Below, piece after piece: positions 1,749 to 22,964 of a DNA stretch of 39,772 bases. The translations under genes and the position numbers were made by a program. The DNA comes from Candidatus Iainarchaeum sp. (GTDB lineage: Archaea; Iainarchaeota; Iainarchaeia; Iainarchaeales; GCA-2688035). The DNA lies in the NCBI GenBank assembly GCA_017610245.1, contig JAFCCK010000001.1, positions 1-39,772 of the forward strand, in the 5' to 3' direction. Position 1 is the stretch's first letter; every line of letters starts with the position of its first letter. The notes beneath the pieces were generated by a model, which was not told the DNA's origin, ran no database searches, and was given only the letters and a program-made list of their open reading frames with translations.

Positions 1749-4652
1749 CTAGTAGTCCAGTTTTAAGTACGCCCCTAATGTGTACACTTTGCTGCTTGCA
1801 ATGTTTTCAGCATAGTCCAAGGCATAACCGTAAGTAAGAGTTGAGAGACTTTCCTCCCGAGCCCCCGTATCTTTACGAATTACTGTAGTAAAGCTTGTGT
1901 TCTCAATGAACCAGATGTAAGTTCCGTCTGTTGCACATCCGAATGGGTACCAGGCTTCAGCTAGTGCTCCGTACGAAGAAGCATTGGCAAGCTTGTACCA
2001 ACAGCCGTTTGTTATAGCTGAAGGATAGTGCCAGGTAAGGTGAAAGTTTGTTCCGTCCCAAGCCAGGCCTCTTCCTATCGGGCCATCATAACTAAGCTGG
2101 CCCTCTGGAAACCAACCCATTTGAATTTCTGTGGAGATTGTTGTAGGCGTTGCATTGAATTTGTAAAGCACCTTGTCCCTGTTTGTTTCGCCCTTTGTTG
2201 TATAAGTAGCGTAAAGGTTTGAGCCATCCCACTCGCAATCTGCCCAGAGGTTTCCTGTTGATTCTGTCCCGGTAATTGTGTGTGTCTCATCAAGCGAGCC
2301 GTCTGCGTCATCTATTTTGTACCAGGTGCCATACGTTCCCAAGTCTGAAAGAATCCACAAGTCGCTTCCGTCAAAACAAATTCCCACAAAGGTTCCATAC
2401 GTGCTTACTGAAAAATCGTAAGTTGCTGCAGCTGCTATTCCATAGTCCCCTGCCACATGCTTTGCTATCCTGTTTGTTGTTCCGTCAGTATTTGTACTCC
2501 AAAGAGTTGTCCCGTCGCCACAGCAGCTCTGTGGATCATAGCCTGATGCTCCGCAAACTGTTTCCATATTCAGAGCCGCACTTATTGAAATCAAGTCTGC
2601 ATTGAATTGCATTAAGAACCTTGTACCGTCCCTCACTGCGAAGAACCTTGAGATTGCAGAACAATAACCAGCGCCAGTTTTAGCATACGTTCCGCTCCCT
2701 CCATAATAAAGCTCGTCCGGAAGCCTTTGCGTAGCAGAACAATATACCCAAATACTATTAATTGCTGAAGAAGAACCGTCCGGTTTTACTCCAACAACAA
2801 AGTTGGCTCCATCGTACGCCAGGCCCCAAAGCGCTGTTCCTGCTCCTGCCGGCAGTGAAAAATTAGAATCCTCTACGGTCAAATCAGAAGCATTCCTTTG
2901 GCTTATTCTTCCGTTTGTAGCATCAACCACCCACAGGTTTGTTCCGTCATGCGCACAGTCCCTGATGTCTATTCCAAGCGTTGCAACAAGTTCCGAAGCA
3001 GAACCAGTAATCGAATCCATAGTATAAATTTCGCTGTCAGAATTTGTTGTATAAAAAACATTTCCGTCTTTGTAGAATGTTACGCCATAGGCATTTCCTC
3101 CCCAGGGAGTGCCGAAACGCCAGTATTCCTTGAATGTCAAATAATCGCCGAACCATACCTCTACAAAAGTCCAAGGCCTGTAAACAACTATCTCCGCTTT
3201 TTTTGTTGCAAACACTAGAGCATCAAACTCATCCATTGTAACCTTGAATTTTAAATCGTTCTTGTCGCCTGTGCTGCTTGCGAATGTGTGTTCTATTGCA
3301 GCATCATCCTCTGCTCCGTATGGGTCAAGCTCTTCCCAAGTGGCTCCTTTGTCATTTGAAACATAGTATTTGTTTCCATCATTTCCAGAATATTCCTCGC
3401 GCACAAAAGGCAAGCACTTTGTGTAATTCGCATCACCCACTATGGAGTCTGTGATTTCTGCTGTTGCTGACGAGCTTGGGTTTCCAATCTGCAAAGAGGA
3501 ATCCGTTGTATAGGTATTGGTAAAAGTCCAGAAGTCGTCCTGGTCTTTTGTGAATTTGTAAACATAACTCTCCTCATAGTTGCCGGAGTTAGCAAACTCA
3601 ATGCTATCCTTTGTTTTTTCGTACAGCTCTTTATAGAACGCTGAAGTGTCCTGCTCATCCTGCACTAGCATTACGGTTGTTTTGAAGCCAGAGCTTTTTG
3701 GCTCATAGCTGTGGTTGACATGTCGCACTCTGTAAGAGGTTCCGCTCTCTCCGATTTCGGAAACATTCAGCGTAATTGTTTTCCCGGGAACAACTCTCTC
3801 ATCCCCGTAAATTACTGCCAAGCCTCCCCACTCGCTTTCCTTGTCCTCGAGCAAAGCAGCATCGCTAATTGATTGCACCAGGCTTGCAGTGTCCATTCCT
3901 GCATTCTTTATTATTTTCATTACCTTGCCGTACTTTGCAATGCTATCCTCATCCTGTTCTGTTTTGAACAGCTGCACTTCCTCAACCATCTTGCCATAGG
4001 TTCGGATATAATTTCGCACTGTTTTCCAATCAATGCCCAGGCTAATGTCCTCAACATTTCCCCCATCCCCGGAATCAATACTCACCTCATTAGCCCCGGG
4101 GCTGCCTGTAAAATGCAGCACATCATCAAAGTTAACCCATGAAAAATACTGTGCCTTCACGCAATAGTTTGCAATCAGTTGGTTTAGAAAAACATGGTCT
4201 AAGAATTCTGTACCAGGCACAATTCCTGCAGTAACAACTCCGCCCGTGTTGATTGACGGAACACGCGCATTGACCTCCGCTATAATAATATTTCCAAGGT
4301 CGGTATTTGTATAAGAATTAATTGTAAAATTTTCCATCAACAAAACCCAGGTTCCCCTGCCACTGATTGTAACAGTGGCTCCTGCTGATTTGTTGTAACC
4401 TTTCTTTACTTTCTCAACTCGCCCATGGAATGTTCCAACTACTCCCTCGCTCACATATCCCAGGTAAATCTTTACATCGTCATGGTAGGCAAAAAAATCA
4501 TTGAAAGTGCCTGCTCCATTTTCAAGCTTTACAGTGAAAGAACTAGCCTGAGAATTAACAGGCAGGGACACAGAGAGTTTTTCAACTACGTTATCTGCCT
4601 TTATGCTAACATCATTTATTTTTAAATCGTAATCCGGTTCTATCCTAGTCAT
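1749..4652 (-). CDS. Large tail or baseplate-associated protein with C-terminal beta-propeller-like repeats (putative receptor-binding protein)
   Basis: 967 aa, immediately downstream of tape measure protein (TMP) and a Dit-like gene. The C-terminal half holds about 6 repeats of DG(T/S)xLW... (DGTNLWVVDATNG, DGTTLWSTNTDG, DGSDLWILSDLG, DGSNLYATYTT, DGTNFHLTWHY, DGTYIWFIENT), which is typical of propeller blades. Confidence 0.55.
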   Translation of the reverse strand: MTRIEPDYDLKINDVSIKADNVVEKLSVSLPVNSQASSFTVKLENGAGTFNDFFAYHDDVKIYLGYVSEGVVGTFHGRVEKVKKGYNKSAGATVTISGRGTWVLLMENFTINSYTNTDLGNIIIAEVNARVPSINTGGVVTAGIVPGTEFLDHVFLNQLIANYCVKAQYFSWVNFDDVLHFTGSPGANEVSIDSGDGGNVEDISLGIDWKTVRNYIRTYGKMVEEVQLFKTEQDEDSIAKYGKVMKIIKNAGMDTASLVQSISDAALLEDKESEWGGLAVIYGDERVVPGKTITLNVSEIGESGTSYRVRHVNHSYEPKSSGFKTTVMLVQDEQDTSAFYKELYEKTKDSIEFANSGNYEESYVYKFTKDQDDFWTFTNTYTTDSSLQIGNPSSSATAEITDSIVGDANYTKCLPFVREEYSGNDGNKYYVSNDKGATWEELDPYGAEDDAAIEHTFASSTGDKNDLKFKVTMDEFDALVFATKKAEIVVYRPWTFVEVWFGDYLTFKEYWRFGTPWGGNAYGVTFYKDGNVFYTTNSDSEIYTMDSITGSASELVATLGIDIRDCAHDGTNLWVVDATNGRISQRNASDLTVEDSNFSLPAGAGTALWGLAYDGANFVVGVKPDGSSSAINSIWVYCSATQRLPDELYYGGSGTYAKTGAGYCSAISRFFAVRDGTRFLMQFNADLISISAALNMETVCGASGYDPQSCCGDGTTLWSTNTDGTTNRIAKHVAGDYGIAAAATYDFSVSTYGTFVGICFDGSDLWILSDLGTYGTWYKIDDADGSLDETHTITGTESTGNLWADCEWDGSNLYATYTTKGETNRDKVLYKFNATPTTISTEIQMGWFPEGQLSYDGPIGRGLAWDGTNFHLTWHYPSAITNGCWYKLANASSYGALAEAWYPFGCATDGTYIWFIENTSFTTVIRKDTGAREESLSTLTYGYALDYAENIASSKVYTLGAYLKLDY

Positions 4653-5086
4653 GGAAGTCCCGTTTCCTCAATTTTTATTTTATACTCCCAATGTGCGGTC
4701 AACTCAACCTCCTTCAGTTCAAGGATTCTAACTTGAACTGCAAGGTCAGTGTAGCCCTGGAAAGCCAGCACATCATGGTCCTGGTAATAAGCTCGCATTA
4801 TTGCCATGTTCGCATCCCTAGTTGCACCTTCAAAAATTCCCTTGACTTCGTAAACTGTCGAATCGCTGCCAAGATACTGGCGCTTGGAGTTTTTTGAGCC
4901 CAAGATTGAATGCTTTGCAGTCCGCTTGTAATACTTCGGCTTTATGCCGTCAAAATCTACAATAAGCGTAAGGGCTTCGAGAGTTATTTCTCCAGCTAGC
5001 TGCAGGATAGCATCAGCTGCAAAGGTCTTCGTTCTTCCGTCCTGAACTAGGACAGCATCCATTGAAAATGTTTTAGTCAGCGCCAT
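4649..5086 (-). CDS. Distal tail protein-like (by position). N-terminus carries two copies of the TKTFxADAxL repeat.
   Basis: 145 aa, directly after TMP with a 4-nt overlap into the next gene. Begins MALTKTFSMDAVLVQDGRTKTFAADAILQ, the same repeat unit as the 909- and 309-aa proteins. Confidence 0.45.
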   Translation of the reverse strand: MALTKTFSMDAVLVQDGRTKTFAADAILQLAGEITLEALTLIVDFDGIKPKYYKRTAKHSILGSKNSKRQYLGSDSTVYEVKGIFEGATRDANMAIMRAYYQDHDVLAFQGYTDLAVQVRILELKEVELTAHWEYKIKIEETGLP

Positions 5087-5091
5087 TCAAA

Positions 5092-8370: not shown

Positions 8371-9720
8371 TTAGTAGACCTCCGTTCCTTCGACCATCAT
8401 AACCACGCAGCTTGTTATGTTTATCTCAAGGTCCTGCACAACTAGGTCATCCAATGGTGCGTCATCGTCTGCTTTATCGTATGTGCATTCACTGAAAATA
8501 AATTGAATGCGCTCGTACTCTGGCTTTTTCAGCGTGTGCTTGATTGTGAAGGTTCCGATTGTATCTTGTGGCTCTGTTGCATTTGCTACTCCATATTGCC
8601 TTTCGATTTCTTCCTTATCAAGCAAGTCAATCTTCGCTGTTGATTTGTAGGTTCTCACTCCAGGCACTAATTTCTTGATGTACCTGCCGTCTGTTCCCTT
8701 AGCTTTATAGTTGTTATTTATTGAAAAGCTAAAGTCGTTCAGGTCGTAGTCTGTTCCACCTGCTACTTCAAGCTCAGTGTCCCATTCCAGGTACATTGCC
8801 CCTGTGAAATCTGTGATTGAGGAAGCTGTTGCTCCGCTCACGTTTGTCTGAGGTTTCTTTCCAATCATGTTCGCAATGAATCTGATTGGATCGGTCTGTT
8901 CTCTGGCCACTGAATAGGTCAGCTCGTTTATTTTACAGCCCAGCCAGTATTTGATTATGTCATCTGCTGCTGTTCCTTCTGGGTTAATGTAAGTGTCCTC
9001 AACTGAAAGACCATAGTTTGAGCTACCGTGAATCAGCTTTGTTTCCTTTGCCCAGAAAATTGTTTTTACATCTGTCGTGTAGATTGCTGTTACTGCTGCA
9101 CCAACCCAAACAAGTGCAATTGCAAGCTCATCTGTTGGCACGCTCGCCCAATCTGGCACTGGGTTTGCTGCTGCTGTTCCTGCTGTTACTGTTTCCTCTG
9201 TTGTTGCAGCATTGTCCTTGATTGAAACTACGTCCACTCTGTCCAAAGATGCATGTGCTGCACTGATTGTGATGTCTGTGATTTCGGTCGTTGTATAATT
9301 TGAGGATGCTATGTCATAGCTTCCTGCTGCTGCAAGCGTCAAAGTCATGTTCGGGCTTCCTGCCTCTACAAGGTTGCATGCTGTTACAACTTCGTTTGCA
9401 TCGCTTGCTGCTACTGGCGTAGCTGAACCATCGCCCATTGCACCTTTCTTTAGTTCTCCAAAAACGTACTGCAAAAACAATCCGTTCTGTGGGCTGTACT
9501 CAACAGGCCCAGCGACCTTTACTCTTCCTGCTACTTTCTTCCCGACATTCCTGCCGCTTGATTTACTCCTGTGCTGAATTACGGGAGCAGCAGCTTTTAT
9601 TCCGCAGCTTATTACCTTCCCAAAGGGCAGGTTCACGGCCGCAGATAATGTTCCGTAGGCTGTTTCCTCAACACCATAACTGGTTTGAGAAGACCAACCT
9701 GAATAATCTCTTTGCGTCAT
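8371..9720 (-). CDS. Major tail protein (by position)
   Basis: 449 aa, immediately upstream (in transcription order) of the chaperone and TMP. Rich in T/S/A/G as in tail tube proteins with appended domains. Confidence 0.45.
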   Translation of the reverse strand: MTQRDYSGWSSQTSYGVEETAYGTLSAAVNLPFGKVISCGIKAAAPVIQHRSKSSGRNVGKKVAGRVKVAGPVEYSPQNGLFLQYVFGELKKGAMGDGSATPVAASDANEVVTACNLVEAGSPNMTLTLAAAGSYDIASSNYTTTEITDITISAAHASLDRVDVVSIKDNAATTEETVTAGTAAANPVPDWASVPTDELAIALVWVGAAVTAIYTTDVKTIFWAKETKLIHGSSNYGLSVEDTYINPEGTAADDIIKYWLGCKINELTYSVAREQTDPIRFIANMIGKKPQTNVSGATASSITDFTGAMYLEWDTELEVAGGTDYDLNDFSFSINNNYKAKGTDGRYIKKLVPGVRTYKSTAKIDLLDKEEIERQYGVANATEPQDTIGTFTIKHTLKKPEYERIQFIFSECTYDKADDDAPLDDLVVQDLEINITSCVVMMVEGTEVY

Positions 9721-12498: not shown

Positions 12499-12896
12499 GC
12501 TGTAGATGCAATTATTGTATGTGCAATTCCTACAACCTTGTAGCTTGTTGCTGAACCAACTGTGAGTGGTTCAACTATTCCTGCTGCAGCACAACTTACA
12601 TGTCCGCCTTCTGCGACACCTGTAGTTGAGTACATGGCGTAAATTTTACCAGGCACCAAAGCTGCAACGGTTACAACATCGTTGTCCGCATACTCTGCAG
12701 TTCCAGATTTCGCATAAATTTTCTCGTCCGGTACAGCAATTCCCTGCACGAATGCAGTGTCAGCTGCAGTTAACTTTACATCGTTTGCTGCTGTTCCTTT
12801 TTCCACAAGTTTTCCGAAGCCAATGGCTCCATCAGCTTTCCTTGTGAAGGTCGGTACAACAAATGATGGATTGAAATCATATACTCTATCCGCCAT
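12474..12896 (-). CDS. Small head protein (decoration or DUF2190-like), Ala/Gly/Val-rich
   Basis: 140 aa, between scaffold and MCP. Beta-rich, low-charge composition. Confidence 0.4.
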   Translation of the reverse strand: MADRVYDFNPSFVVPTFTRKADGAIGFGKLVEKGTAANDVKLTAADTAFVQGIAVPDEKIYAKSGTAEYADNDVVTVAALVPGKIYAMYSTTGVAEGGHVSCAAAGIVEPLTVGSATSYKVVGIAHTIIASTAWGKVLII

Positions 12897-13457
12897 TTAC
12901 TTCACCTTCCTTGCATCGGCATATATGTTTTCGCGTGCTTTTTTCAATTCGTCAATCTCACCGTCGCTGTCATGAAAGAGCGTCTTAACCTGCTTTTTCC
13001 CAATAGCGTCTGTTTTTTTACTCAGTTTCTCCATGGAGTCCTCGAGTTTCTTTACTGCGTCGCCTTTCTTTTCAGCCTCTTCCTCAAGCTCTTTATTTTT
13101 TTCTTTGAGCTTTTCGTTTTCAGCTTTCAAGTCAGCATCCTCAGCTTCCTCATCTTCTCCGTTGCCTTCGCCTTCGCCCTCTTTAGGTTTCTCGCCTTCT
13201 TTGGGCTTGGCTTCCTCGCCTTCCTTTGGCTCCTCTCCCTCTTTAGGCTTTTCGCCTTCAGCTGGATCCTCGCCTTCGTCTGCGATTTTCTTTTCAAGGG
13301 CATCAATCTTTTTGTCCTTGTCCGCAACAGAGTCGTTGAGTTCCTTAATCCTTTCTACGGCTAAGGTCTCAAGTCCTTCAGAGGAATCTGCTTCTAAAAC
13401 TTTCTGTAATTCACTCATAATTTTATCCCTCCATAAACATCTGCCTTCATCTATCAC
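12897..13457 (-). CDS. Scaffolding protein
   Basis: 186 aa, highly acidic and coiled-coil, with KPKEGEEPKEGEEAKPKEGEKPKEGEGEGNGEDEE repeats. Immediately precedes the capsid genes. SD is GGAGGGA. Confidence 0.65.
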   Translation of the reverse strand: MIDEGRCLWRDKIMSELQKVLEADSSEGLETLAVERIKELNDSVADKDKKIDALEKKIADEGEDPAEGEKPKEGEEPKEGEEAKPKEGEKPKEGEGEGNGEDEEAEDADLKAENEKLKEKNKELEEEAEKKGDAVKKLEDSMEKLSKKTDAIGKKQVKTLFHDSDGEIDELKKARENIYADARKVK

Positions 13458-13548: not shown

Positions 13549-14214
13549 TTAGAATGCGTTGAGGCCCACACCGTCTGCAGTGCCTGCGCGGCCTTGCATT
13601 ATCAAGGCTAAGTGGTCAAAGAAGAAATTCTCCTGGCGAATGTCATAATGCTGTCCGTTGAATTCCCCCGGCACGTGCACTTCCTTACATCTGAATCCTG
13701 TGCTCACATCCTCTAAGCGCTTTGCTTTTGTGTCCTTAATTAGCTGTTTGTTTTTTTCATTCTTTTTAATGAACACGTCCCCATAAGAACGCTTTCCTTT
13801 TTTGTCCCACTTAACAGAATCAAAAACAATATGGCCTACTTGCTGGCCCATGCTTGTAACTACTTTCTCCGGAGGATGCACGTATGCTGTTATAGGTTTG
13901 CCCCTTAAAGAATCCAGTGCTTTCTTCAGTTCCTCAGCCGACTTGTAGTGCTTGCCATTGTCGTACGGTAGCACTCCTTCCTTTGTGAAAACAACATCAT
14001 GGAAAGTAACGCCCTTCTCTGATTCAGTCCAGGCGTCGCCTTCAATGGCATCGCCTTTTGTTCCAATAGAATCAGTATGATCTATAAGTTTTTTTCCTGC
14101 GCCTTGCTCTTCAAGTTTTTTAATCAAAGCCTTATCTGCCAGGGCCCTGTCATTCTTTTTTGCCTGAGCTTTCAGTTTGCCAAACAAAGCCAGGTCGCTT
14201 AAAGAATCATTCAT
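13549..14214 (-). CDS. Head morphogenesis protein (possibly a prohead protease; unassigned)
   Basis: 221 aa ORF immediately upstream of the scaffold gene. Preceded by copy 2 of the conserved promoter-like element. Confidence 0.4.
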   Translation of the reverse strand: MNDSLSDLALFGKLKAQAKKNDRALADKALIKKLEEQGAGKKLIDHTDSIGTKGDAIEGDAWTESEKGVTFHDVVFTKEGVLPYDNGKHYKSAEELKKALDSLRGKPITAYVHPPEKVVTSMGQQVGHIVFDSVKWDKKGKRSYGDVFIKKNEKNKQLIKDTKAKRLEDVSTGFRCKEVHVPGEFNGQHYDIRQENFFFDHLALIMQGRAGTADGVGLNAF

Positions 14215-14243
14215 AATAAACCACTCTTACCTTCTGCATTCTC

Positions 14244-14257
14244 CTTAATATAGTTTT
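14244..14257 (-). promoter_or_regulatory. Conserved promoter-like element, copy 2
   Basis: ctccttaatatagttttgccattttt on the plus strand. It lies 30-45 nt upstream of the ATG at 14214. Confidence 0.5.
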
Positions 14258-14383
14258 GCCATTTTTCAGGCAAATTTGTGCGATAAGCTCCTAGGCCCTG
14301 CATTTTCCTAGTCAATCCTTCCCATCCAAGCCCTGCACGTGCTCTTACCTTCCACAAACTCCTTATTATACTTTATTCTTTTT

Positions 14384-17113
14384 TTAAGAAATAAACGCCT
14401 CGAGAGAGTCTTTTCTAGTTTTTACTGTAAGATTATCCTTCCTAGTTGCCACGTCCAGGGAATCCTTTCTCGTTGTAACCTCTACTTGTTCCTTTCGGAG
14501 AAAAACATCCAATTGGTATATGGCAAGCGGCGCATAAAGAATTGCATCCCCAGTAAATGTTTTGTATGCTCTGCCTGTCAGTACAGCATCAATTGAGAAT
14601 GTTTTTGTAACTACTATCCGCAGCATAGCATCGAGTGTAAAGGTCTTTGTTGCCTGCAGCATTATCCAGGCATCAGCAGTGAAAGCCTTTATTGTTGTCA
14701 GCTGCAGTATAGCGTTAATCTCAAAGGTTTTCAGGCTCACCGACCTTAGTACGGCATCCGCGCTGAATGTTTTGGTAACAACTATACTTAGTATAGCGTC
14801 TGCAGTAAAGGCCTTGCTCCCTACCTGCATTAAAATGGCATCAGCCTGGAATGTTTTTGTTTCCTGCTTTCTGAGGAAAGCGTCCGCAGTAAAAGCCTTT
14901 GTGAACACTGCTCGCAAGTATGCGTCTGCCTGGAATGTTTTCGAATATGTCCCTTGCAGTAATGCATTTGCAGTAAATGATTTGGAGTAACTTATTCTGA
15001 GTAATACATCTGCAGTAAAGGCTTTTGTCAGCCTGTCAACAACTACCGCATCTGCTATGAATGTTTTCGTTTCTGTTGCTTGTAACCAGGCATCGGCACT
15101 GAATGTTTTGCTGTACCTATTTACCAAAATACCGTCAGCCAAGAATGTTTTTGTTTGCACGGCTTGCAGCACTGCATCTGCTTCGAATGTTTTCGTGTAC
15201 GTTCCTTTTAGAATTGCGTTGATTGAAAAGTTTTTAGCGTCTGCCGCTTCCAGGATTGCGTCCATGGAAAAACTTTTTGTAAGGCCGCTTGCTTTCAGGA
15301 TTGCATTTGCTTCGAAAGTTTTGGTGAGCCGTTCAACAACTACAGCATCAGCCTCGAATACTTTTGTAAATGTGGCTAGGAGAATTGCGTCCGCTTCAAA
15401 TTCTTTGGTTCCAACTATCTGCAATGTAGCATCTGCACTGAAGGTCTTTGTCAGGTCAGAGGCTTTCAAGAAAGCATCTGCGATGAATGTTTTTGTTGCG
15501 GTCCCGAACAGTATTGCATCAGCTGAAAATGCTTTAGTAAACACCGCTCGCAAGTGAGCATCTACTGTGAATGTTTTCGTGAGCCTATTTATTAAGATAG
15601 CGTCAGCCTCAAAGGTCTTGCTGAATGTGGCCTGCAGCACAGCGTCAACATCAAATGTTTTAGTCAACCTGTCAACAAGTACAGCATCGGCCTCAAAGGT
15701 TTTGGTTGCTGTTGAAACCAGGAATGCGTCCGCTGAAAATGTTTTTGTCAAGCCCTGTGCCTGCAAGTATGCATCCACTATAAAAGTTTTTGTAAGCCGA
15801 TTTATCAGGAGTGCATCGGCTGTGAAGGTCTTGGTTACTACAGGGGATATGAGTATTGCATCTGCTGCAAAGGTTTTAGTCAGGCCAGATTGTTTCAATA
15901 ATGCATCTGCCTCGAATGACTTAGAATAGGTCCCCTTGAGAATTGCATCAGCTGTAAAATATTTAAAATTTGTACCAACCCATGCATCCATTGTGAAAGT
16001 CTTCGTCAGGCCAGAAGCTTTTAGTATAGCATCTGCTGTGAATGTTTTTGCGTATCTTCCTAATTCATCAAATTTAACAGCTATATCTGTCCAAGTGGCA
16101 GAAGAAGACCAATCAGTACCACTATTTGCTGATTCGGTATAAGTACAGGTGGCTCCGCCGTATGTTTCATTAACATATACTGCACTATTTACAGTAGCCA
16201 TGGCCGATACTCTCCAACAATTAGAACTATCTACAGAATTTGGAGATTTAAGGACTATTCTGTACTGACTTCCATTTGCAAAAGTTATAGGAGAACTAAA
16301 AGATGCGTACGTCCAGTGGTAGCTTGTAGATTCAGATGTTCCTGCCGGAGCTATTTCTCCACTATCTATAACATCTTCGGCATCCGGGCCTCTAATTTCA
16401 TATTGTAATGCACCTGCCGGAGTTCCTTGTCTTCTTATAATAATTTCTAATCCTCTAACGGTTTGCGCCCCGGCGATTGTAATTAATTCTCCTTTCCAAT
16501 ATGCTCCATAACAGTTTTCAGTGTAGCCATAAGTGTAAGGCTGGCCTTCATACGTTGCATCATCATACTCAATGATAAATACTCCTGAGCCACTAGTACC
16601 GCCCCAATCAGCACCGCTGTTAGTTGATTGTTTAAATTCTAAACTCGAATCAACATAATTAGAATCATTATCTGCTTGGTTTCTTGGAGTGCCAATAACG
16701 GGTGCGGTGTAAATACCTCTCGATAAGTGTGCATGATTACTTCCGTCTATTGTTCCGCTTTGATACTGAATTCTGATTGCATAAGTAACTCCAGCAGTTA
16801 AATCGACTGTTTCTCCTAAAGTGAAAGTATTCCATGCTCCATCTGCAATTTGTTGGTCTACATATCCGGAGTTAGTTGCCCCAAGCCAGGTGCCATCCGG
16901 CTCATCCGAACCATCAACTGCTTGTAATCCAATTCTATAAGTCGGACTTGTTCCTGTAACTGTGTTTGAATCTATGCGAATAGCTGAAACAGTTTTTGTG
17001 TTTTGAGCCGTGAATATTATGGCTATTTGGTCGGTAGCAGCATCTAATGGAATTGATGCTACAGTATAATTCAATGCAGATTCATGTCCAAAAAGATAAT
17101 TACTTGTTCCCAT
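14384..17113 (-). CDS. Large fibre or adhesin-like protein: N-terminal globular domain plus about 38 tandem 14/15-residue repeats (TKTFxADAxLxxxx)
   Basis: 909 aa. Residues about 345-880 are repeats (TKTFTADAILISPVV, TKTFTADALLINRL, TKTFIVDAYLQAQGL, ...). These are visible at DNA level as a degenerate 42/45-nt periodicity (gcatc.gc....gtgaa.gttttngt) across 14500-16080. The C-terminus has 3 copies of TRKDSLxVxx. Confidence 0.7.
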   Translation of the reverse strand: MGTSNYLFGHESALNYTVASIPLDAATDQIAIIFTAQNTKTVSAIRIDSNTVTGTSPTYRIGLQAVDGSDEPDGTWLGATNSGYVDQQIADGAWNTFTLGETVDLTAGVTYAIRIQYQSGTIDGSNHAHLSRGIYTAPVIGTPRNQADNDSNYVDSSLEFKQSTNSGADWGGTSGSGVFIIEYDDATYEGQPYTYGYTENCYGAYWKGELITIAGAQTVRGLEIIIRRQGTPAGALQYEIRGPDAEDVIDSGEIAPAGTSESTSYHWTYASFSSPITFANGSQYRIVLKSPNSVDSSNCWRVSAMATVNSAVYVNETYGGATCTYTESANSGTDWSSSATWTDIAVKFDELGRYAKTFTADAILKASGLTKTFTMDAWVGTNFKYFTADAILKGTYSKSFEADALLKQSGLTKTFAADAILISPVVTKTFTADALLINRLTKTFIVDAYLQAQGLTKTFSADAFLVSTATKTFEADAVLVDRLTKTFDVDAVLQATFSKTFEADAILINRLTKTFTVDAHLRAVFTKAFSADAILFGTATKTFIADAFLKASDLTKTFSADATLQIVGTKEFEADAILLATFTKVFEADAVVVERLTKTFEANAILKASGLTKSFSMDAILEAADAKNFSINAILKGTYTKTFEADAVLQAVQTKTFLADGILVNRYSKTFSADAWLQATETKTFIADAVVVDRLTKAFTADVLLRISYSKSFTANALLQGTYSKTFQADAYLRAVFTKAFTADAFLRKQETKTFQADAILMQVGSKAFTADAILSIVVTKTFSADAVLRSVSLKTFEINAILQLTTIKAFTADAWIMLQATKTFTLDAMLRIVVTKTFSIDAVLTGRAYKTFTGDAILYAPLAIYQLDVFLRKEQVEVTTRKDSLDVATRKDNLTVKTRKDSLEAFIS

Positions 17114-17115
17114 AA

Positions 17116-17355
17116 TTATACCTCTTTAGAATATGCGTTCCACAATTTCGAATCTTCTGCTTTTGTCATTTGAGATTTCAATTCATCCAATAATGAATCT
17201 ATCCATTTTTCCACATTAGTCTGATTAAAACTCGATGAATCAAAATGGTTAAATTTTGAAAACACATCAAAACTTTCTCCAGCTGAAGGAGCAAATTCAA
17301 CTTCAATATGTATTCCATTTTCATCCCAATTAACTTTTTTTAGTGTTGCTATCAT
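17116..17355 (-). CDS. Hypothetical small protein
   Basis: Best ATG is at 17355 with GGAGG 9 nt upstream. 79 aa. Confidence 0.4.
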   Translation of the reverse strand: MIATLKKVNWDENGIHIEVEFAPSAGESFDVFSKFNHFDSSSFNQTNVEKWIDSLLDELKSQMTKAEDSKLWNAYSKEV

Positions 17356-17443
17356 CCTTCCCAACCTCCTGGTCTGTTTCTTTCTTTGCTAAAATCTTTC
17401 ATTCAAATCCCTCCAGATATTTTTTTATAAATCTTCATACGCA

Positions 17444-18373
17444 TCACGCTCTCCCTCTTAGCTCAGCCTCAATATTTGGATTCCTAAGTTGTACAATCAT
17501 GTGGTACCTTGCCATTGGCACATAGAGAATCGAATCGGCTGAAAATGTTTTTATTAAATTACCTGTCAACACTGCATCCAAAACAAAGGTCTTTGTCCCA
17601 ACTAATCTTAGAACCGCATCCGCTGTAAAGGTTTTTGTTAATACCAGGACAACCCAGGCATCTGCAATAAATGTTTTTGTCTGTGTTGCTTTCAGAATTG
17701 CATTTGCCCCGAAGGTTTTCGTTGCTATTAACCTCAATACAGCGTCCACACTGAATGTTTTTGTTTCAGTTTTCCTAAGCACTGCATCTGCAGTGAACGC
17801 CTTAATATATGTTCCTTTCAGGATTGCGTTCACTGAAAAAGTCTTCGCCGTTACAGCAGTCAATATCGCATCAGCAGAAAATGTTTTTGTAATTCCAGAT
17901 TCCTTCAAATAGGCGTCCGCAGAAAATGTTTTTGTGAGCCTGTTAACTAATACACTATCCGCAATGAATGTTTTGGTATTTACTGCTGAAACCAGTATTG
18001 CATCAATCGCAAAGGTTTTTGTTTCCGTGGCCTTCAGTATTGCATCAACTGAAAAGGTTTTAGTTTGGCCCAAGGCTTGCAGGAAAGCGTCAGCTTCAAA
18101 CGCCTTAGTGAATTCCTTCCTCAAGAAAGCATCCGCTGTGAATGTTTTTGTAAGCCGATTCACTAGGACAGCATCAGCTTCCAGAGCCTTCGTTGATGTT
18201 GCCTTCAGTATGGCGTCAGCTGTAAAAGTTTTTGTTCTCCTGTTTATCAGAATAGCGTCCGCTGTGAATTCATTATAAATTACGCCATAGTACGATTGCC
18301 CGTACCTTCCAGTTCCATACAGTGCTGATTCTGCCATAGCCTCATCCTCTGAGCCTAAGAATCCAGCACACAC
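17444..18373 (-). CDS. Paralogous repeat protein (about 18 TKTFxADAxL repeats)
   Basis: 309 aa with the same repeat unit as the 909-aa protein. The C-terminal motif DSILYVPMARYHMIVQLRN is shared (DAILYAPLAIYQLDVFLRK in the 909-aa protein). Confidence 0.65.
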   Translation of the reverse strand: MCAGFLGSEDEAMAESALYGTGRYGQSYYGVIYNEFTADAILINRRTKTFTADAILKATSTKALEADAVLVNRLTKTFTADAFLRKEFTKAFEADAFLQALGQTKTFSVDAILKATETKTFAIDAILVSAVNTKTFIADSVLVNRLTKTFSADAYLKESGITKTFSADAILTAVTAKTFSVNAILKGTYIKAFTADAVLRKTETKTFSVDAVLRLIATKTFGANAILKATQTKTFIADAWVVLVLTKTFTADAVLRLVGTKTFVLDAVLTGNLIKTFSADSILYVPMARYHMIVQLRNPNIEAELRGRA

Positions 18374-18590: not shown

Positions 18591-19280
18591 TCAGTCGTTG
18601 TAAATAAAAGGCCAGTAACTTCCTCTCGCTATTTTTATGTAATCTAAATGCACTTCTGTTTCAGGGGGGCTTGCCGGATAATTCCAAGGTCCAATTTGCG
18701 TAAGTCCATTATAGATAGTATTTGGGTCTGCAGAATCTCCGGCTCCGTCATAAACCCAATCAGCACCATCGTCTTTTGAAAAAAAGGAAAAGGAATTCTG
18801 CCTAAATAGAATTCTGATGGTCCACCAGCTTACATTGTCGAATGTTTTGTCGAATTGCTTTACATAAGCATTGGTTGAATCGAAGTACCAGACGCTGTCT
18901 TCTGAAATTGCGACCGTATGCCTGTAGGTTCCTTGATATACGGATAAAAGAAAACAGTCCAATGTACCGACTGTTCCATCAAATCCGCCAGCCAGCTTGT
19001 CGAATTTAATTTTAAATTCAACAGTAATGTTAGGACTACGCTGAAATGCTCCTGCAAAATTTTGAAGAACAGCTGCGCTGTTTGTTCCGCCTGAATCTCC
19101 TGCAACCAGATGAGCTTGACCAGCTGGGTCTATTTCTATTGTTGCAGTTCCTAATGGGTTTTGTGTCCATCCGGTTAAATCATCAAAATCATCATCAATG
19201 CTTAAGAATCTCAAATCATCTACCTCGTGCGTAAATCCTAGAGTTTTTCGAACTGCCATAACATCACCTAAATATCCCAA
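18591..19280 (-). CDS. Paralog 3 of a tandem triplicated 220-aa family (putative jelly-roll or lectin-like adhesin)
   Basis: 229 aa. Shares PAGQ.HLVAGD.GGT.S, FKIKFD(K/Q)LAGG, DNVSW(W/Y)TIR(I/L), NYPASP.ETEVH.DY.KIA with its two neighbours. Confidence 0.6.
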   Translation of the reverse strand: MGYLGDVMAVRKTLGFTHEVDDLRFLSIDDDFDDLTGWTQNPLGTATIEIDPAGQAHLVAGDSGGTNSAAVLQNFAGAFQRSPNITVEFKIKFDKLAGGFDGTVGTLDCFLLSVYQGTYRHTVAISEDSVWYFDSTNAYVKQFDKTFDNVSWWTIRILFRQNSFSFFSKDDGADWVYDGAGDSADPNTIYNGLTQIGPWNYPASPPETEVHLDYIKIARGSYWPFIYND

Positions 19281-19936
19281 TCAATCGGATAGTATTCTCC
19301 TGCAGCTATTTTAAAATAATCAATATGCACTTCCGTTTCAGCTGGGCTTGCTGGATAGTTTTGAGCTATCAGCTGAATCAATCCAGGAAATCCTGCATTT
19401 GGATCTCCATCATCGCAAGAGCCCCAATAAGCCCAATCTCCATCATCATCTTTTATAAAAAGGATTATTGATTTCGCAAAATGAATAAGCCTTATTGTGT
19501 ACCACGAAACATTATCCAAAGAAGCAGTAAATTGCTGGACATAACCATTCGTAGAATCATAAAACCACACGCTATCATCAGAAATCAGAACATAATTCAC
19601 ATGGACTCCTGTCAAAATACCTATTAAAAAACAGTCCAATGTAGCGGTAGTTCCATTATAACCTCCAGCTAATTGGTCAAACTTAATTTTAATTTCCGTT
19701 GTAAAAGATGAAAGGTATTGTTGAAAAATATTGCTTCTATATGCTCTTGCGGTGCTGTCAGTTCCGCCTGCATTTCCGGCTTTTAAATGAAGCTGGCCAG
19801 CTGGACTTATCTCTCGCAATGAAGTTCCTATTCCGTCAAGTACCCAGCTTGCAGTATCATCCCAAGGCTCGTCGATGTGCAAATACCGTATATCGTGAAT
19901 GTCCTGCAACCGAGCTAATTCTTTGTACTCACTCAT
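19268..19936 (-). CDS. Paralog 2 of the triplicated family
   Basis: 222 aa, about 40-45% identical to its neighbours. 4-nt start/stop overlap with paralog 1. Confidence 0.6.
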   Translation of the reverse strand: MSEYKELARLQDIHDIRYLHIDEPWDDTASWVLDGIGTSLREISPAGQLHLKAGNAGGTDSTARAYRSNIFQQYLSSFTTEIKIKFDQLAGGYNGTTATLDCFLIGILTGVHVNYVLISDDSVWFYDSTNGYVQQFTASLDNVSWYTIRLIHFAKSIILFIKDDDGDWAYWGSCDDGDPNAGFPGLIQLIAQNYPASPAETEVHIDYFKIAAGEYYPIDWDI

Positions 19937-20592
19937 GGCATAATCATCCCCGGTGCGAACTTCACATAGTCCATGTGAATTTCTGTTTCAGCAGGACTTG
20001 TTGGGTAATTAATTACCCACATTAAAATTCTTCCATTAAGTATGGTATATGGGTCTGCGTTTCTACAACGACCTAAAAAGTTCCAGTCAGCGTCATCATC
20101 TTTAGCAAAAACTAAGGTAAAATTCGAATCAAAAATCAACCTGATGGTGTACCATGAAACATTGTCGAAAGTGGTGTCGAACTGTTTTACATGGACATTT
20201 CCAGCAGTGTAGTACCATACGCTGTCAGAAGTAAAGGTAACCACATGCATATATACTCCTGAATAATGTCTAAATTGGAAGAAATCGTTTGTCGCACCGG
20301 GAGTCCCAGTCCATCCTCCAGCTAACTGGTCGAATTTAATTTTGAATTCTACAGTCATTGTTTGGAGATTTGTCACTAAGCTATCAAGATACTTACCGCC
20401 AGTACTGTCTGTTCCACCTGCATCTCCAGCTACCAGATGCAATTGTCCAGCTGGGCTTTCTTCAACAGTGCGTGTTCCTGTGCCGTAAGTTGTCCAATCA
20501 GTAATATCTTCCCAATCTTCATCCTTTATGAGATTTCGGGTATCTACTATATCAGAATAATGAGCCCTTCCTTTGTACGCAGTCATAATCAT
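19933..20592 (-). CDS. Paralog 1 of the triplicated family
   Basis: 219 aa with the same conserved blocks. 4-nt overlap with the upstream gene. Confidence 0.6.
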   Translation of the reverse strand: MIMTAYKGRAHYSDIVDTRNLIKDEDWEDITDWTTYGTGTRTVEESPAGQLHLVAGDAGGTDSTGGKYLDSLVTNLQTMTVEFKIKFDQLAGGWTGTPGATNDFFQFRHYSGVYMHVVTFTSDSVWYYTAGNVHVKQFDTTFDNVSWYTIRLIFDSNFTLVFAKDDDADWNFLGRCRNADPYTILNGRILMWVINYPTSPAETEIHMDYVKFAPGMIMP

Positions 20593-20915
20593 TCCTCAAC
20601 ACAAACATAGAGCCTTCCTTCATCAACTTGGTACACTACTTTTCCAAGAACAGGAGTAAGCGCATCTCTCGCTGTTGCATCTGCCACATTATGCACCACT
20701 AAATCTTTTGCTTGATTGCCTTGAAATTCAGCATCAGCATTTACTGTTAGAATCTCACAATCAACATTCCTTGAGGAATCAATAACCTCGGTTCCCTGAA
20801 TCTCAAGTGAAAGAGTATTCAGTTTGTGTGTGCCATCGTGAATGTAGTCATTGATATCATTCTGCCGTGCTGCAGTTATTAGGTCCCCATTCGAAACATC
20901 TGCCAAGTCTGCCAT
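20589..20915 (-). CDS. Hypothetical structural-module protein
   Basis: 108 aa, tightly packed (1-4-nt overlaps on both sides). Confidence 0.45.
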   Translation of the reverse strand: MADLADVSNGDLITAARQNDINDYIHDGTHKLNTLSLEIQGTEVIDSSRNVDCEILTVNADAEFQGNQAKDLVVHNVADATARDALTPVLGKVVYQVDEGRLYVCVEE

Positions 20916-21130
20916 TACTTCCCACCTTCCTTATTTTTCCACTTTAAATAATCCGCAAGGTCGCCCCCTCCAATACTAATCTTTCGGATATTGGAAAACC
21001 AAGCAAAAACATCTTCTCTTTTAATTCCAGGCATGTCTTTAAGGAATAATTCTGCCTGCGCACTGAAATAAATTTCTACTTCTCTCCTAGTCACTTTTAT
21101 CACCATCCTTTTTCTTAACCAAAATTGCAT
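20915..21130 (-). CDS. Hypothetical small protein
   Basis: 71 aa ORF that abuts its neighbours. Confidence 0.35.
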   Translation of the reverse strand: MQFWLRKRMVIKVTRREVEIYFSAQAELFLKDMPGIKREDVFAWFSNIRKISIGGGDLADYLKWKNKEGGK

Positions 21131-21644
21131 CAGCAGCTGCTTGAGTATTATCTCTTTTCACAATTACTGCCCCTACAGAAAAATGCTGCTCGTCATAGCA
21201 TTTCGTTTCTGCCGGAATAGGATTCCCAATCGCATTGTAAGGAGCCTCCCTCCATATGCCTGAAAGCTCAACGTGCCCGTCCTCAAAAACGTAAGCTATA
21301 TCCTGCACGCTCCGGCCGCCAATGGTTGCCTGCCATCCAACTAGATAAATAATTGACCTGCCAATAGGCTTAGCTTTAATATCTCTGGCCCCTCCACCAA
21401 ATTTGTATTTCTCCAGGACTCTACGCCTGTAAATTAGTCTTCGACCTGGCTCCAGGTACATTTTGAAAAGAAGCTGATCCGGCACCGCTTTCGGTTGAAT
21501 AATTCCGGCTTTCCTTATTTCAAAAGCAGAAAGCTTACTCCGGTCAATGTCCGGGTACTTGTTTTCTTTTCCATCTTCCTCGTATTGAGATAATTCTTTG
21601 CCGTCATTATAAACAGCCTTCCAGTAAATGCTTGAGTGCATCAT
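21087..21644 (-). CDS. Hypothetical protein. The C-terminus carries a single TQAAADAILVKK motif resembling the TKTFxADAIL repeat.
   Basis: Best start is ATGATG at 21644 (SD GGAGGAG; ATGA overlap with the stop of the homing endonuclease (HE) gene). 185 aa. Confidence 0.45.
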   Translation of the reverse strand: MMHSSIYWKAVYNDGKELSQYEEDGKENKYPDIDRSKLSAFEIRKAGIIQPKAVPDQLLFKMYLEPGRRLIYRRRVLEKYKFGGGARDIKAKPIGRSIIYLVGWQATIGGRSVQDIAYVFEDGHVELSGIWREAPYNAIGNPIPAETKCYDEQHFSVGAVIVKRDNTQAAADAILVKKKDGDKSD

Positions 21645-22021
21645 TCTCTCCTCCGTAATGTTTCCGAGAATTTCTGAGCAGTTTCTTTCTTCAGAACAAG
21701 TTCTGGCAAAATCCATTCAGTAAATCTTAAGCAATCATAGAAAGAACGAAGCGTCCAACAGTACTGTGGACTCCAGTGTTTTTTCCAGCTCTTTTGTCGC
21801 CCTCTTCTCTGCAAAGAGCCGCCTAAATTAGAAACAATATAATCCAGGACGAATTTGTCCCTTTCAACTAAAGCAATCCTGATAAAAGGGCTTACTCTTT
21901 TCCTATCTTCAACATAGAAATTGCCTTCACCATCAATCATTCCGGCAAGCCAGCATTTAAATTTCTCGCTTACTTGGAAATTAAGTCTGCATTCTTTTCT
22001 GTTTGTTTTATTGGAGTCCAT
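21641..22021 (-). CDS. LAGLIDADG homing endonuclease (free-standing)
   Basis: 126 aa containing LAGMIDGEGNF (the LAGLIDADG motif), followed by a typical basic C-terminal region. Confidence 0.7.
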   Translation of the reverse strand: MDSNKTNRKECRLNFQVSEKFKCWLAGMIDGEGNFYVEDRKRVSPFIRIALVERDKFVLDYIVSNLGGSLQRRGRQKSWKKHWSPQYCWTLRSFYDCLRFTEWILPELVLKKETAQKFSETLRRRE

Positions 22022-22051: not shown

Positions 22052-22618
22052 TTATATTTCGTCGTACTGGAATGTGATTGTTTCGTCAGCCAAGTTTCCT
22101 GGGCTGGCTGTACTTCCCACAACCATCTGCAGCACAACATAGTCTGTTGTTTCGCCAATCGCATTGATTATTGTTCCTGCTTCCGAAATTGTACATGTCC
22201 TTGGAGCTCCGCTCGTGTAGGAAAACAAATCGGTTACAGCTGCAACATCAGTGTGGTTGGTCATTATTTCGTTTGCGTCAGAAACATCGTAGCCTGTGTC
22301 TGCTCCGCTGTTCTTGACCTGTACTCCATCGCCAACATTTACGGTGATTCCTGTTCCGAAACCTCCGCCGTCAGTGTACAGCTTTACGTTGTCCACCTGA
22401 GTATCTGGCGCTGTTGCACAGTAAAGATAGACTTGCTTCCATCGGCTGTACTCTGAACCTGCTGCCGGAATTGGCATTGGATCAACTGCATCGATTGTTG
22501 CATCGTCTTCTTGCTTGAACCTGATATTAGGGGGCCCAAGCCCGTCCGTGTTCTGCTCCGTTCCTGGAGTGTTGTCTGTTCCTCCAAAATCGAAGTTCAC
22601 ATTAAATACTGCTGCCAT
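22052..22618 (-). CDS. Hypothetical virion protein (Gly/Thr/Asp-rich, beta-rich)
   Basis: 188 aa ORF between the HE gene and an Ig-like gene. Confidence 0.45.
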   Translation of the reverse strand: MAAVFNVNFDFGGTDNTPGTEQNTDGLGPPNIRFKQEDDATIDAVDPMPIPAAGSEYSRWKQVYLYCATAPDTQVDNVKLYTDGGGFGTGITVNVGDGVQVKNSGADTGYDVSDANEIMTNHTDVAAVTDLFSYTSGAPRTCTISEAGTIINAIGETTDYVVLQMVVGSTASPGNLADETITFQYDEI

Positions 22619-22640: not shown

Positions 22641-22964
22641 TTATGGCAAATCTTTCACTACGCGGATATCGAATCTCTTAGTAGTGATTATTTTTCCGCC
22701 TGAATATGTTATCTGTAATTCAGCATGATAGAGCCCGATTGTTATGAGCTCGCCGTTCTGCACCGTGTACTTGCAGGTTCCGTCCACTGCGGAAACAACC
22801 GAGCAAGTCACATCCAAATCTAGTACAGTTCCTCCAATAATTGCGCTCCTTAATTTTATTTCTGTAACATTCGTGAGGTTAACTACTACTCTAGCATAGT
22901 CATAGACTGTGAAGTTAATATCGTAAAGCTCATCGTTCTGAACTACTTCAAGAACTTCAACCAT
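22641..22964 (-). CDS. Small Ig-like or beta-sandwich protein
   Basis: 107 aa with a beta-strand-like alternating pattern. Directly follows the portal gene. Confidence 0.4.
   Translation of the reverse strand: MVEVLEVVQNDELYDINFTVYDYARVVVNLTNVTEIKLRSAIIGGTVLDLDVTCSVVSAVDGTCKYTVQNGELITIGLYHAELQITYSGGKIITTKRFDIRVVKDLP

Follow-up and report, generated by a model that had tools for sequence, protein, structure and literature searches.

A tandem repeat of 14 or 15 residues is carried by three structural proteins, p909, p309 and p145, encoded in the window (the whole stretch of 39,772 nucleotides analysed), which is a tailed-virus structural module with the gene order tape measure protein (TMP), p145 and hub (Table 1). 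In an uncultivated group of tailed viruses, adhesin fibres at the tail tip probably use the repeat as their stalk, and the C-terminus of the fibre may dock on the units of p145. It is best read as a new family within a known functional kind, the fibre stalk. An initial reading of the sequence alone (hereafter the sequence-only reading) had placed the repeat in several structural proteins, which holds for these three and fails for a fourth, p209.

Table 1. Coordinates of the fibre genes, partner cassette and tail-tip genes in the window.
Feature	Position	Strand	Remarks
p909	14384..17113	-	909 aa; adhesin-type head, 36-unit array and C-terminal tail
p909 N-terminal head, two-lobed	16052..17113	-	aa 1-354; weak DUF4082 match
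p909 array, 36 tandem 14/15-residue units	14525..16051	-	aa 355-863
p909 C-terminal tail, 9-residue mini-repeat	14387..14524	-	LDVFLRKEQ / VEVTTRKDS / LDVATRKDN / LTVKTRKDS
p309, head-less fibre paralog	17444..18373	-	ORF 309 aa
p309 array, 18 tandem units	17513..18277	-	aa 33-287
p309 C-terminal tail, two mini-repeat copies	17447..17512	-	alignment
82-aa ORF separating the two fibre genes	17116..17364	-	not conserved in L003
p107, stand-alone BppU_N domain, first gene of the cassette	22641..22964	-	PF10651
p188, beta-sandwich protein of high conservation, always preceding the repeat gene	22052..22618	-	
p209, conserved core of ~125 aa, second constant partner	21087..21644	-	ORF open up to 21716
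p145, small tail-tip protein between tape measure and hub	4649..5086	-	synteny
p145 N-terminal units (TKTFSMDAVLV, TKTFAADAILQL), proposed docking tag	4997..5077	-	unit scans
hub967, YqbQ-like tail hub	1749..4652	-	PF24032 31.4 bits

Sequence, distribution and predicted fold of the repeat unit

The units of p909 and p309 share the consensus T-K-T-F-x-A-D-A-[IV]-L-x4, with a pattern of hydrophobic even and Thr/Asp odd positions. Conservation is highest at K2, F4, D7, A8 and L10 (3.8-4.2 bits each), and the consensus of 495 units from across the family gives K2 at 98%, D7 at 94%, F4 at 91% and T1 at 90%. Neither Gly nor Pro is enriched at any position of the family units, in which K2, F4 and D7 are invariant. 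Unit spacing in p909 is mostly 14, with some of 15 and one of 13, and the family-wide period is likewise 14 (690 spacings), then 15 (250). The motif K.F..[DN][AGSV].[LVI] was observed 36 times in p909 and 16 times in p309, versus <=1 in 1000 shuffles. Earlier counts of about 38 repeats in the 909-aa protein and about 18 in its 309-aa paralog are borne out for the tandem nature of the first array and for the number in the second, whereas p909 itself has 36 in-register units. A sequence super-period of 28 residues (two units) was sought and not found, neighbouring units being merely least alike at positions 11-14.

Within the unit core, amino-acid identity is 0.64. Where units use identical four-fold codons, third-position identity is 0.345 versus 0.318 by chance, and Tandem Repeats Finder did not find the 42/45-nt array at the DNA level. 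This saturation of synonymous sites between units indicates that the array is old and kept up at the protein level, in agreement with what had been proposed from the divergence of the DNA repeats.

No match to the repeat, including to Adeno_shaft, was found in Pfam-A (E up to 0.1), PHROGs v4 or NCBIfam 20, nor by phmmer against all PDB chains (E up to 1), and p909 and p309 have no profile match among the phage tail-fibre families (T4-type and others) catalogued in Pfam, PHROGs and NCBIfam. A tblastn search of 50,697 GenBank phage records with p309 was also negative, as were GenBank phage comparisons of TerL and p188, and the literature searched did not contain the repeat motif strings and returned nothing relevant. 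Together with the fold comparison below, these results agree with the initial impression that the repeat does not belong to a named family.

Clustered at 50% identity, the proteins that carry the repeat fall into about 1,410 groups, with some members longer than 3,000 aa, and nearly all of the relatives examined are located on viral or unbinned metagenomic contigs. Repeat patterns searched against 185,579 species genomes led to no confirmed relative, the genome scans giving only three MAG contigs, in Patescibacteria and Planctomycetia bins. A strict N-terminal DNA pattern search matched only a contig that was already known, and the full-length family alignment proved too gappy for pattern scans. 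No tRNA genes were found; a close relative encodes a TFIIB-domain gene, which hints at archaea.

The AF2 monomer model of the array, of moderate confidence (pLDDT 65 for the model and about 70 over the array, pTM 0.59), has strands of ~11 residues, one per unit, with turns at unit positions 12-14 and a solenoid-like stack, consistent with the single beta-strand per repeat suggested in the sequence-only reading. In each 14-residue unit, positions 1-11 would make up a beta-strand and 12-14 a short turn, the even positions (F4, hydrophobic 6, small 8, L10) contributing a buried face and the odd positions (T1, T3, T5, D7) a polar one, and the stacked strands would form a rod. Foldseek comparison of the model with PDB folds returned sub-threshold hits only (E 0.15-6, TM 0.08-0.35), all to solenoids, the best at E 0.15 with a TM below 0.2. 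These weak and sole neighbours are beta-solenoids such as curli CsgA, insect or bacterial antifreeze or ice-binding proteins and left-handed beta-helix enzymes; the modelled strand stack, hydrophobic interior and flat Thr-rich face of the array resemble them, however their unit length and motif are different, and the present repeat belongs to viral structural genes rather than to amyloid or antifreeze proteins.

Fibre genes and their partner cassette

The usual architecture in the family is an N-terminal head followed by the array and a short tail, the heads being of LamG_3, DUF2341, DUF4082, beta-helix or sialidase type and the C-terminal tails varying widely. This succession of a variable lectin-type head, array and short tail fits the fibre shaft that had been suggested, in which the rod would hold the variable lectin-type or adhesin head, at the N-terminus, away from a C-terminus lying close to the virion. 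p909, for which 84 word-indexed homologs were retrieved, has a head that matches DUF4082 (PF13313) at 19.7 bits (E 9e-4), below the Pfam gathering cutoff of 28.4, and precomputed PF13313 hits exist for two of its homologs (P0013 and P0060). Residues 202-530 of P0044, encoded in a pilus locus of Patescibacteria, are homologous to this head (32% identity, E 4e-45). The tail type of p909 recurs in P0001, P0003 and the L041 fibre, and the C-terminal motif ILY.P.A.Y...V.LR previously noted as common to p909 and p309 holds in alignment. Positional conservation among p309, p909, P0001 and P0003 covers the final ~6 units together with the tail; with homology limited to this region, a derivation of p309 as the C-terminal half of p909 was rejected. 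The true start of p309 is likely the ATG at 18337, with a GAGG Shine-Dalgarno sequence upstream, giving a protein of 297 aa.

The repeat gene is preceded by p188 in 22/22 loci and by p209 in 19/22, and the reverse linkage, from the partner genes to a repeat gene, was true in 3/3 loci. p107 often joins p188 and p209 ahead of the repeat gene. Neither these three partner genes nor the tail-tip location figured in the sequence-only reading. p107 is assigned to BppU_N by its PF10651 score (28.4 bits; cutoff 23.1), and 7/8 homologs also exceed the cutoff. p107 and p188 both have an Ig-like sandwich fold; a confident model of p188 has donor-strand-exchange sandwiches as its closest structures in the PDB, and a search of BFVD returned only uncharacterised proteins (TM <=0.47). 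No family match was found for p209 across ten homologs. The single ADAIL-type copy once read at the end of this 209-aa protein is a chance resemblance and was rejected, scoring -1.9 bits; the site belongs to a lineage-specific C-terminal extension confined to the window and the two relatives closest to it, where it reads SAGAILV, and the remaining p209 homologs are without it.

The baseplate of the lactococcal phage TP901-1 (Dit/BppU/BppL) offers a partial parallel. The cassette opens with a real BppU_N protein and apparently specifies an adhesion device, set peripherally round the tail-tip hub, whose receptor-binding modules can be exchanged. In contrast to TP901-1, BppU_N is here a stand-alone protein of 107 aa, the stalk is a different one, the cassette is encoded apart from the TMP-hub genes, and homologs of BppL or of a classical Dit were not detected.

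Repeat units at the tail tip and fusions to the hub

hub967 scores 31.4 bits against PF24032 (cutoff 27) and is encoded after the tape measure, as a hub of the YqbQ/XkdQ type. The two repeats with which the 145-aa post-TMP protein was said to open are true units by score, at 12-13 bits each in a six-frame scan and 19-20 bits in an ORF scan; apart from these two, the window has no strong unit match outside p909 and p309. All nine database homologs of p145 have one or two N-terminal units and further homologs were found beside hubs; where a p145 homolog adjoins an unextended hub, one or two N-terminal units are always present. A pairing of one-unit p145 variants with extended hubs was considered and is rejected by L042 and L043. 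One N-terminal unit is also present on an unrelated hub in L001 and absent from the homolog in L015/L019, the L001 hub having gained it independently. In L015/L019 and L022 a free fibre is present and the hub and nearby proteins are without a unit tag in the DNA examined; a single-sequence hub scan found nothing.

Some relatives encode the tail hub with a lectin head and four or five units fused in frame at its N-terminus. In P0079/L041, from a virus syntenic with the window, LamG and five units precede a hub967 homolog (E 2e-179), the junction falling precisely at residue 2-3 of this homolog, and L041 retains a degenerate unit alongside a free fibre. In L055, a single 5.2-kb contig, the gene order is TMP, p145 homolog (E 2e-43), p188 (2e-51), p209 (5e-26) and a fusion of LamG, four units and hub (7e-174), and here the p145 homolog has no units. 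The view that the short copies are docking modules is strengthened for p145 by the retention of its units in homologs, the L001 hub and the hub fusions, and lapses for p209.

The fibres would belong to a mobile cassette: p107 (the BppU_N adaptor), p188, p209 and the fibre gene or genes would work at the tail tip though they lie beside head genes in the window. The free fibre would dock by its conserved C-terminus on the pair of units at the N-terminus of p145, itself placed on the hub, through homotypic pairing of strands or rungs. On the logic of gene fusion and fission, such docking would be a non-covalent rebuilding of the head-units-hub chain that is one protein in some relatives. Donor-strand-exchange subunits (chaperone-usher pilins, TasA, archaeal bundling pili) would be comparable both in the modelled sandwich of p188 and in docking by the pairing of a donated strand. 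A more tentative extension, less likely than not, would make the unit a new type of beta-stack, with open ends permitting non-covalent, end-to-end rung complementation. Free adhesin fibres would then plug onto the one- or two-unit tags of tail-tip proteins, and p188 and p209 would be new assembly or adaptor factors dedicated to them.

Alternative readings and implications

It is conceivable, if less probable than docking on p145, that the units of p145 and the L001 hub are short spacers or fusion remnants and that free fibres attach through p107, p188 or p209. BppU_N domains are attachment adaptors, as known from TP901-1, the fibres are universally linked to p188/p209 whereas the tags are not universal, and the degenerate unit of L041 persists despite a free fibre. 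However, K2, F4 and D7 are intact in the units of essentially all p145 homologs, units are missing in L055, the sole case of a cassette fibre fused to the hub, and the L001 hub, an unrelated protein, gained its unit independently.

Somewhat more doubtful is an obligately homotrimeric shaft, of the triple beta-spiral or triple beta-helix kind, in place of a stack made by one chain. Most phage fibres and the adenovirus and reovirus fibres are trimers, and the hub is expected to be trimeric. Constraint acts on nearly every strand position, D7 and hydrophobic 9 of the "polar" face among them, which suggests packing on both faces. The adenovirus fibre shaft and the reovirus sigma1 triple beta-spiral (15-residue pseudo-repeat) resemble the array in their short 14-15-residue repeat with alternating hydrophobics and in linking a virion anchor to a receptor-binding head. 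Against this, the repeat has no sequence or fold match to the Adeno_shaft, reovirus or T4 fibre families, and the conserved Gly or Pro turn of the adenovirus and reovirus shafts is replaced by invariant K2 and D7. Relative to those shafts the polarity is reversed, with the head N-terminal and the anchor C-terminal. The AF2 monomer already makes a compact stack, and in the fusions the stalk starts at the N-terminus of each hub subunit, which may lie off the three-fold axis. The hydrophobic/polar pattern, the monomer model and the placement at the hub N-terminus lean slightly towards a self-contained stack over a trimeric beta-spiral.

Fibres of the head or neck, standing on the capsid or collar and anchored by the cassette partners (compare phi29 gp8.5, T4 Hoc and T4 fibritin), are improbable. 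Such a location would suit the position of the cassette, which in the window and most relatives lies between portal-MuF and protease/MCP or between head and connector genes, and the Ig-like sandwiches of p107 and p188, a class common in capsid decoration. It is at odds with two independent relatives in which head and units are fused to the tail hub, the position of p188 and p209 between TMP and hub in L055, the unit tags on tail-tip proteins and the baseplate nature of BppU_N, and the window has no further fibre genes past the hub. A non-virion role, in which the structural operon would carry a moron-type adhesin that acts at the cell surface or modifies the host, and for which the head domain common to p909 and the cellular pilus-locus protein might speak, is very improbable given that the gene always lies in structural modules and is hub-fused in relatives, and that the repeat patterns gave no confirmed relative in the species genomes.

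With the repeat absent from the domain, structure and phage-protein catalogues searched, current pipelines call these genes "hypothetical" and miss the fibres of an entire set of environmental viruses; an HMM of the units would annotate them in viral metagenomes. Receptor-binding fibres determine which cells can be infected, and their attachment modules are re-engineered for phage retargeting. The cassette of four genes, the fused and split forms of head, stalk and hub, and the short tags together provide a testable model of modular fibre attachment. If rung complementation is true, tag-bearing hosts would be able to swap fibres without recombination inside the hub genes.

The repeat unit and its arrays

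All genes of the window are encoded on the minus strand. The repeat unit of the fibre-type proteins p909 and p309 follows the consensus T-K-T-F-x-A-D-A-[IV]-L and then has four variable positions, with a spacing that is usually 14 residues, now and then 15, and once 13. The sequence-only reading had counted about 38 consecutive repeats in p909 and about 18 in p309; the tandem array of p909 stands, with an exact count of 36 in-register units, and p309 does carry 18. The motif K.F..[DN][AGSV].[LVI] occurs 36 times in p909 and 16 times in p309, compared with no more than one in 1000 shuffles of each protein. Positions K2, F4, D7, A8 and L10 each hold 3.8-4.2 bits of information, neighbouring units are least alike at variable positions 11-14, and no strict two-unit sequence period was found in the arrays.

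Tandem Repeats Finder detected no 42/45-nt array in the window DNA. Between units, third positions of identical four-fold codons agree at a rate of 0.345, where composition alone predicts 0.318, and yet identity reaches 64% across the ten core residues. Either the array is old, then, or its DNA copies are actively prevented from becoming identical, and selection on the protein holds it, bearing out the earlier proposal of heavy synonymous divergence with maintenance at the protein level. The long antisense ORFs spanning both arrays (such as ...NVFV..ASA...) are a reverse-complement reading of the repeats and almost certainly not genes.

A six-frame unit-HMM scan of the whole window gave three matches outside the p909 and p309 genes, two of them strong. 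These two open p145, encoded directly after the tape measure gene, as had been read from the sequence. The third, ADAILV at the end of the cassette protein p209, scores -1.9 bits. It belongs to a C-terminal extension that the window shares solely with its two closest relatives, in which the stretch reads SAGAILV; other p209 homologs do not have the extension, and this candidate was therefore rejected as a repeat unit. The repeat is thus carried by three of the four proteins first proposed.

The p909 protein comprises a 354-aa head, the units, and a 46-aa tail built of a 9-residue mini-repeat (LDVFLRKEQ, VEVTTRKDS, LDVATRKDN, LTVKTRKDS), whereas p309 is nearly head-less and ends in two mini-repeat copies; its start is likely the ATG at 18337, which follows a GAGG Shine-Dalgarno sequence. 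The mini-repeat conforms to L-[DTE]-V-x-x-R-K-x-x. C-terminal tails vary widely across the family, some members ending in different mini-repeats (period 8-11) and others in a helix-like, K/R-rich stretch. Among p909, p309 and the related proteins P0001 and P0003, only the tail and the ~6 units before it (DAW[IV], VLTG, ILY.P) are positionally homologous, which marks this part as a conserved module at the C-terminal end.

Features of the window and of related loci L004, L039 and L040
Feature	Position	Strand	Description
p145 units	4997-5077	-	Two strong unit matches; extreme N-terminus of 145-aa protein
Tail tube protein	8371-9720	-	449 aa, unusually long; Phage_tube_2
Antisense ORFs	14339-15929; 17934-18278	+	85-166 aa
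p909	14384-17113	-	909-aa ORF
p909 mini-repeat	14387-14524	-	After array
p909 head	16052-17113	-	N-terminal domain
p309	17444-18373	-	309-aa ORF
p309 mini-repeat	17447-17512	-	After array
~220-aa paralogs	18591-20592	-	Three in tandem (229, 222, 219 aa)
p108	20589-20915		108-aa protein
p209	21087-21644	-	209-aa cassette protein
LAGLIDADG ORF	21641-22021	-	Homing endonuclease; PF00961, E 5e-6
p188	22052-22618	-	Cassette protein
p107	22641-22964	-	Cassette protein
Portal-MuF	22965-24989	-	674-aa fusion, Phage_portal_3 + MuF-like minor head domain
ParB-methyltransferase	26854-28176	-	440 aa, ParB_N + N6/N4 DNA methyltransferase
116-aa ORF	34501-34851		Position matching L040 gene
L004 protein	13599-16505	+	968 aa
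L039 protein	5001-6935		Prepilin-type
L040 protein	12703-13053	+	116 aa, TFIIB repeat

Predicted structure and distribution of the family

The repeat has no family in Pfam-A, PHROGs or NCBIfam and no match in a phmmer search of every PDB chain (E up to 1); tblastn of p309 against 50,697 GenBank phage records gave no match, and the strings KTFTADA and KTFSADA did not occur in the literature searched. Modelled as a monomer with AlphaFold2 from 33 homologs, p309 gave a structure of only moderate confidence (mean pLDDT 65, ~70 over the array, pTM 0.59). The prediction is beta structure throughout: each unit supplies one strand of ~11 residues, in agreement with the earlier proposal, with the turn falling at its positions 12-14, and several strands run together into unbroken beta stretches of 24-27 residues, as at solenoid arcs. 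Foldseek against the PDB returned nothing significant for this model (best E 0.15, TM <0.2), all weak matches of the array being beta-solenoid or beta-helix proteins. Together, the database, PDB and Foldseek searches did not link the repeat with confidence to any named family, and the description of the repeat as new holds.

A word-indexed search with p909 identified 84 metagenomic proteins, ~80 of them with units (maximum 46 copies), and exhaustive phmmer with p309 against 1.84 billion cluster representatives identified 1,410 proteins at E up to 1e-3, a number that falls to 722 at 1e-10 and to 208 at 1e-30; some exceed 3,000 aa. Relatives are present at 29 viral loci in IMG/VR, and repeat-pattern scans across 185,579 species genomes yielded no confirmed relative. 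Family-wide spacings are 14 (690 cases), 15 (250), 13 (146) and 16 (78). The consensus of 495 clean units from 132 proteins is T-K-T-F-T-[AIVL]-D-[AGS]-[IVLFY]-L-x4 (K2 98%, D7 94%, F4 91%, T1 90%), the even positions making up a hydrophobic face and the odd positions one rich in Thr and Asp. Outside the repeat, family members carry lectin- or enzyme-type modules (Laminin_G_3, DUF2341, DUF4082, beta-helix and sialidase-type domains), frequently laid out as beads on a string. In a 968-aa protein adjoining the main fibre gene of L004, just two units (aa 190-216) connect an N-terminal domain with a large C-terminal part that resembles an enzyme, showing that the unit also works as a short inter-domain linker.

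Gene neighbourhood and position on the virion

The gene order on the minus strand is small and large terminase, portal-MuF, p107, p188, LAGLIDADG ORF and p209, then small ORFs, the three ~220-aa paralogs, p309, an 82-aa ORF and p909. These are followed by a DUF2213 protease, scaffold-like and cement proteins, an HK97-type capsid protein, neck proteins, the tube protein, tape measure, p145 and a 967-aa YqbQ-like hub (hub967). The portal-MuF fusion recurs in the related loci L003 and L004, and the ParB-methyltransferase corresponds to two separate genes in L003. The Phage_tube_2 match spans residues 17-369 of the tube protein yet covers just ~210 profile positions, suggesting a large insertion or decoration domain.

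Repeat genes travel with p188 and p209. Of the distinct viral loci, 22 extend 2.5 kb or more upstream of the repeat gene; all of them have a p188 homolog upstream and 19 a p209 homolog, often with p107, and the p188/p209 linkage is kept despite differing portal, protease, capsid and tape-measure families. Conversely, all three loci found via p188 with enough downstream DNA encode a repeat protein. The p107 protein is a stand-alone BppU_N domain (28.4 bits, cutoff 23.1; 7 of 8 homologs above cutoff), whereas in TP901-1 this domain is the N-terminal part of the baseplate upper protein. The conserved core of p209 (~125 aa) matched no family. The LAGLIDADG ORF overlaps the annotated p209 start; this insertion also occurs in L003 and is missing from most other cassettes. 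The ~220-aa paralogs, seen in the window only, have no Pfam or NCBIfam family and a weak PHROG match for the 219-aa copy alone; they may be separate head domains for p309. They are preceded by p108, which is also present in L030 and L037.

The fibre cassette sits near the head genes, and gene position alone suggested head fibres; comparison with relatives favours the tail tip instead, on four counts. All nine database homologs of p145 start with one or two units, as does each p145-type protein adjoining an unextended hub in a metagenome scan. The virus of L001 has a tape measure and hub of unrelated type, and its protein in the hub position (931 aa) begins MAV-TKTFTVDSIL; the L015/L019 homolog of this protein has no N-terminal unit, so L001 gained it independently. 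P0079 (loci L040, L041, L049), which comes from a virus syntenic with the window, is an in-frame fusion of Laminin_G_3 and five units to a hub967 homolog (aa 298-899 to hub967 aa 2-627, E 2e-179), the last unit joining the hub's normal N-terminus directly. In L055, the tape measure gene is followed by a p145 homolog without units (aligned to p145 aa 34-143, E 2e-43), p188 and p209 homologs (E 2e-51 and 5e-26), and a single chain of Laminin_G_3 head, four units and hub (E 7e-174); in this one short contig, the entire cassette lies inside the tail-tip module, the fibre is a covalent part of the hub, and p145 has lost its units. No unit tag was found in the retrieved DNA of some viruses with free fibres.

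Host clues and the role of the repeat

A prepilin-type protein encoded in L039, a Patescibacteria type IV pilus locus with T2SSE, T2SSF and pilin-like genes, shares 32% identity (E 4e-45) over its residues 202-530 with the p909 head; a viral fibre and a cellular pilus protein here have an adhesin domain in common. This likeness and a few p188 homologs binned in Patescibacteria MAGs lean toward a Patescibacteria host. L040, from a virus closely related to that of the window, encodes a TFIIB-repeat protein (PF00382, 31.8 bits, cutoff 23.6), which is a hint of an archaeal host; the window ORF at the matching position is unrelated. Together with one repeat-family member labelled Methanosarcinales and weak portal matches to ANMV-1 and haloarchaeal viruses, amid many bacterial phages, the TFIIB-repeat protein leans toward archaea.

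The unit is a conserved beta-strand module that spaces adhesin-type heads away from either the tail hub or a short C-terminal end, and one- or two-unit tags are present on tail-tip proteins. Fusions run from N-terminal head through units to C-terminal hub, a polarity by which the free fibre's C-terminal end would be virion-proximal, which agrees with the conservation of the end module. The p145 tag would take the position of the last units in the fused stalk; in the simplest model, fibre end and tag would join by homotypic strand or rung pairing, the stack continuing non-covalently, with p107, p188 and p209 as putative adaptors or assembly factors. The length of 36 units would be roughly 9 nm with two units to a solenoid rung, about 17 nm in a single meander sheet, or about 47 nm in a beta-spiral. 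The reading first proposed, an undescribed repeat that may form a fibre shaft with docking copies, is largely supported and can be narrowed to a stalk for tail-tip adhesins whose gene cassette is obligate. The repeat family is new, possibly with a new fold, and is of a known kind, that of viral receptor-binding fibres.
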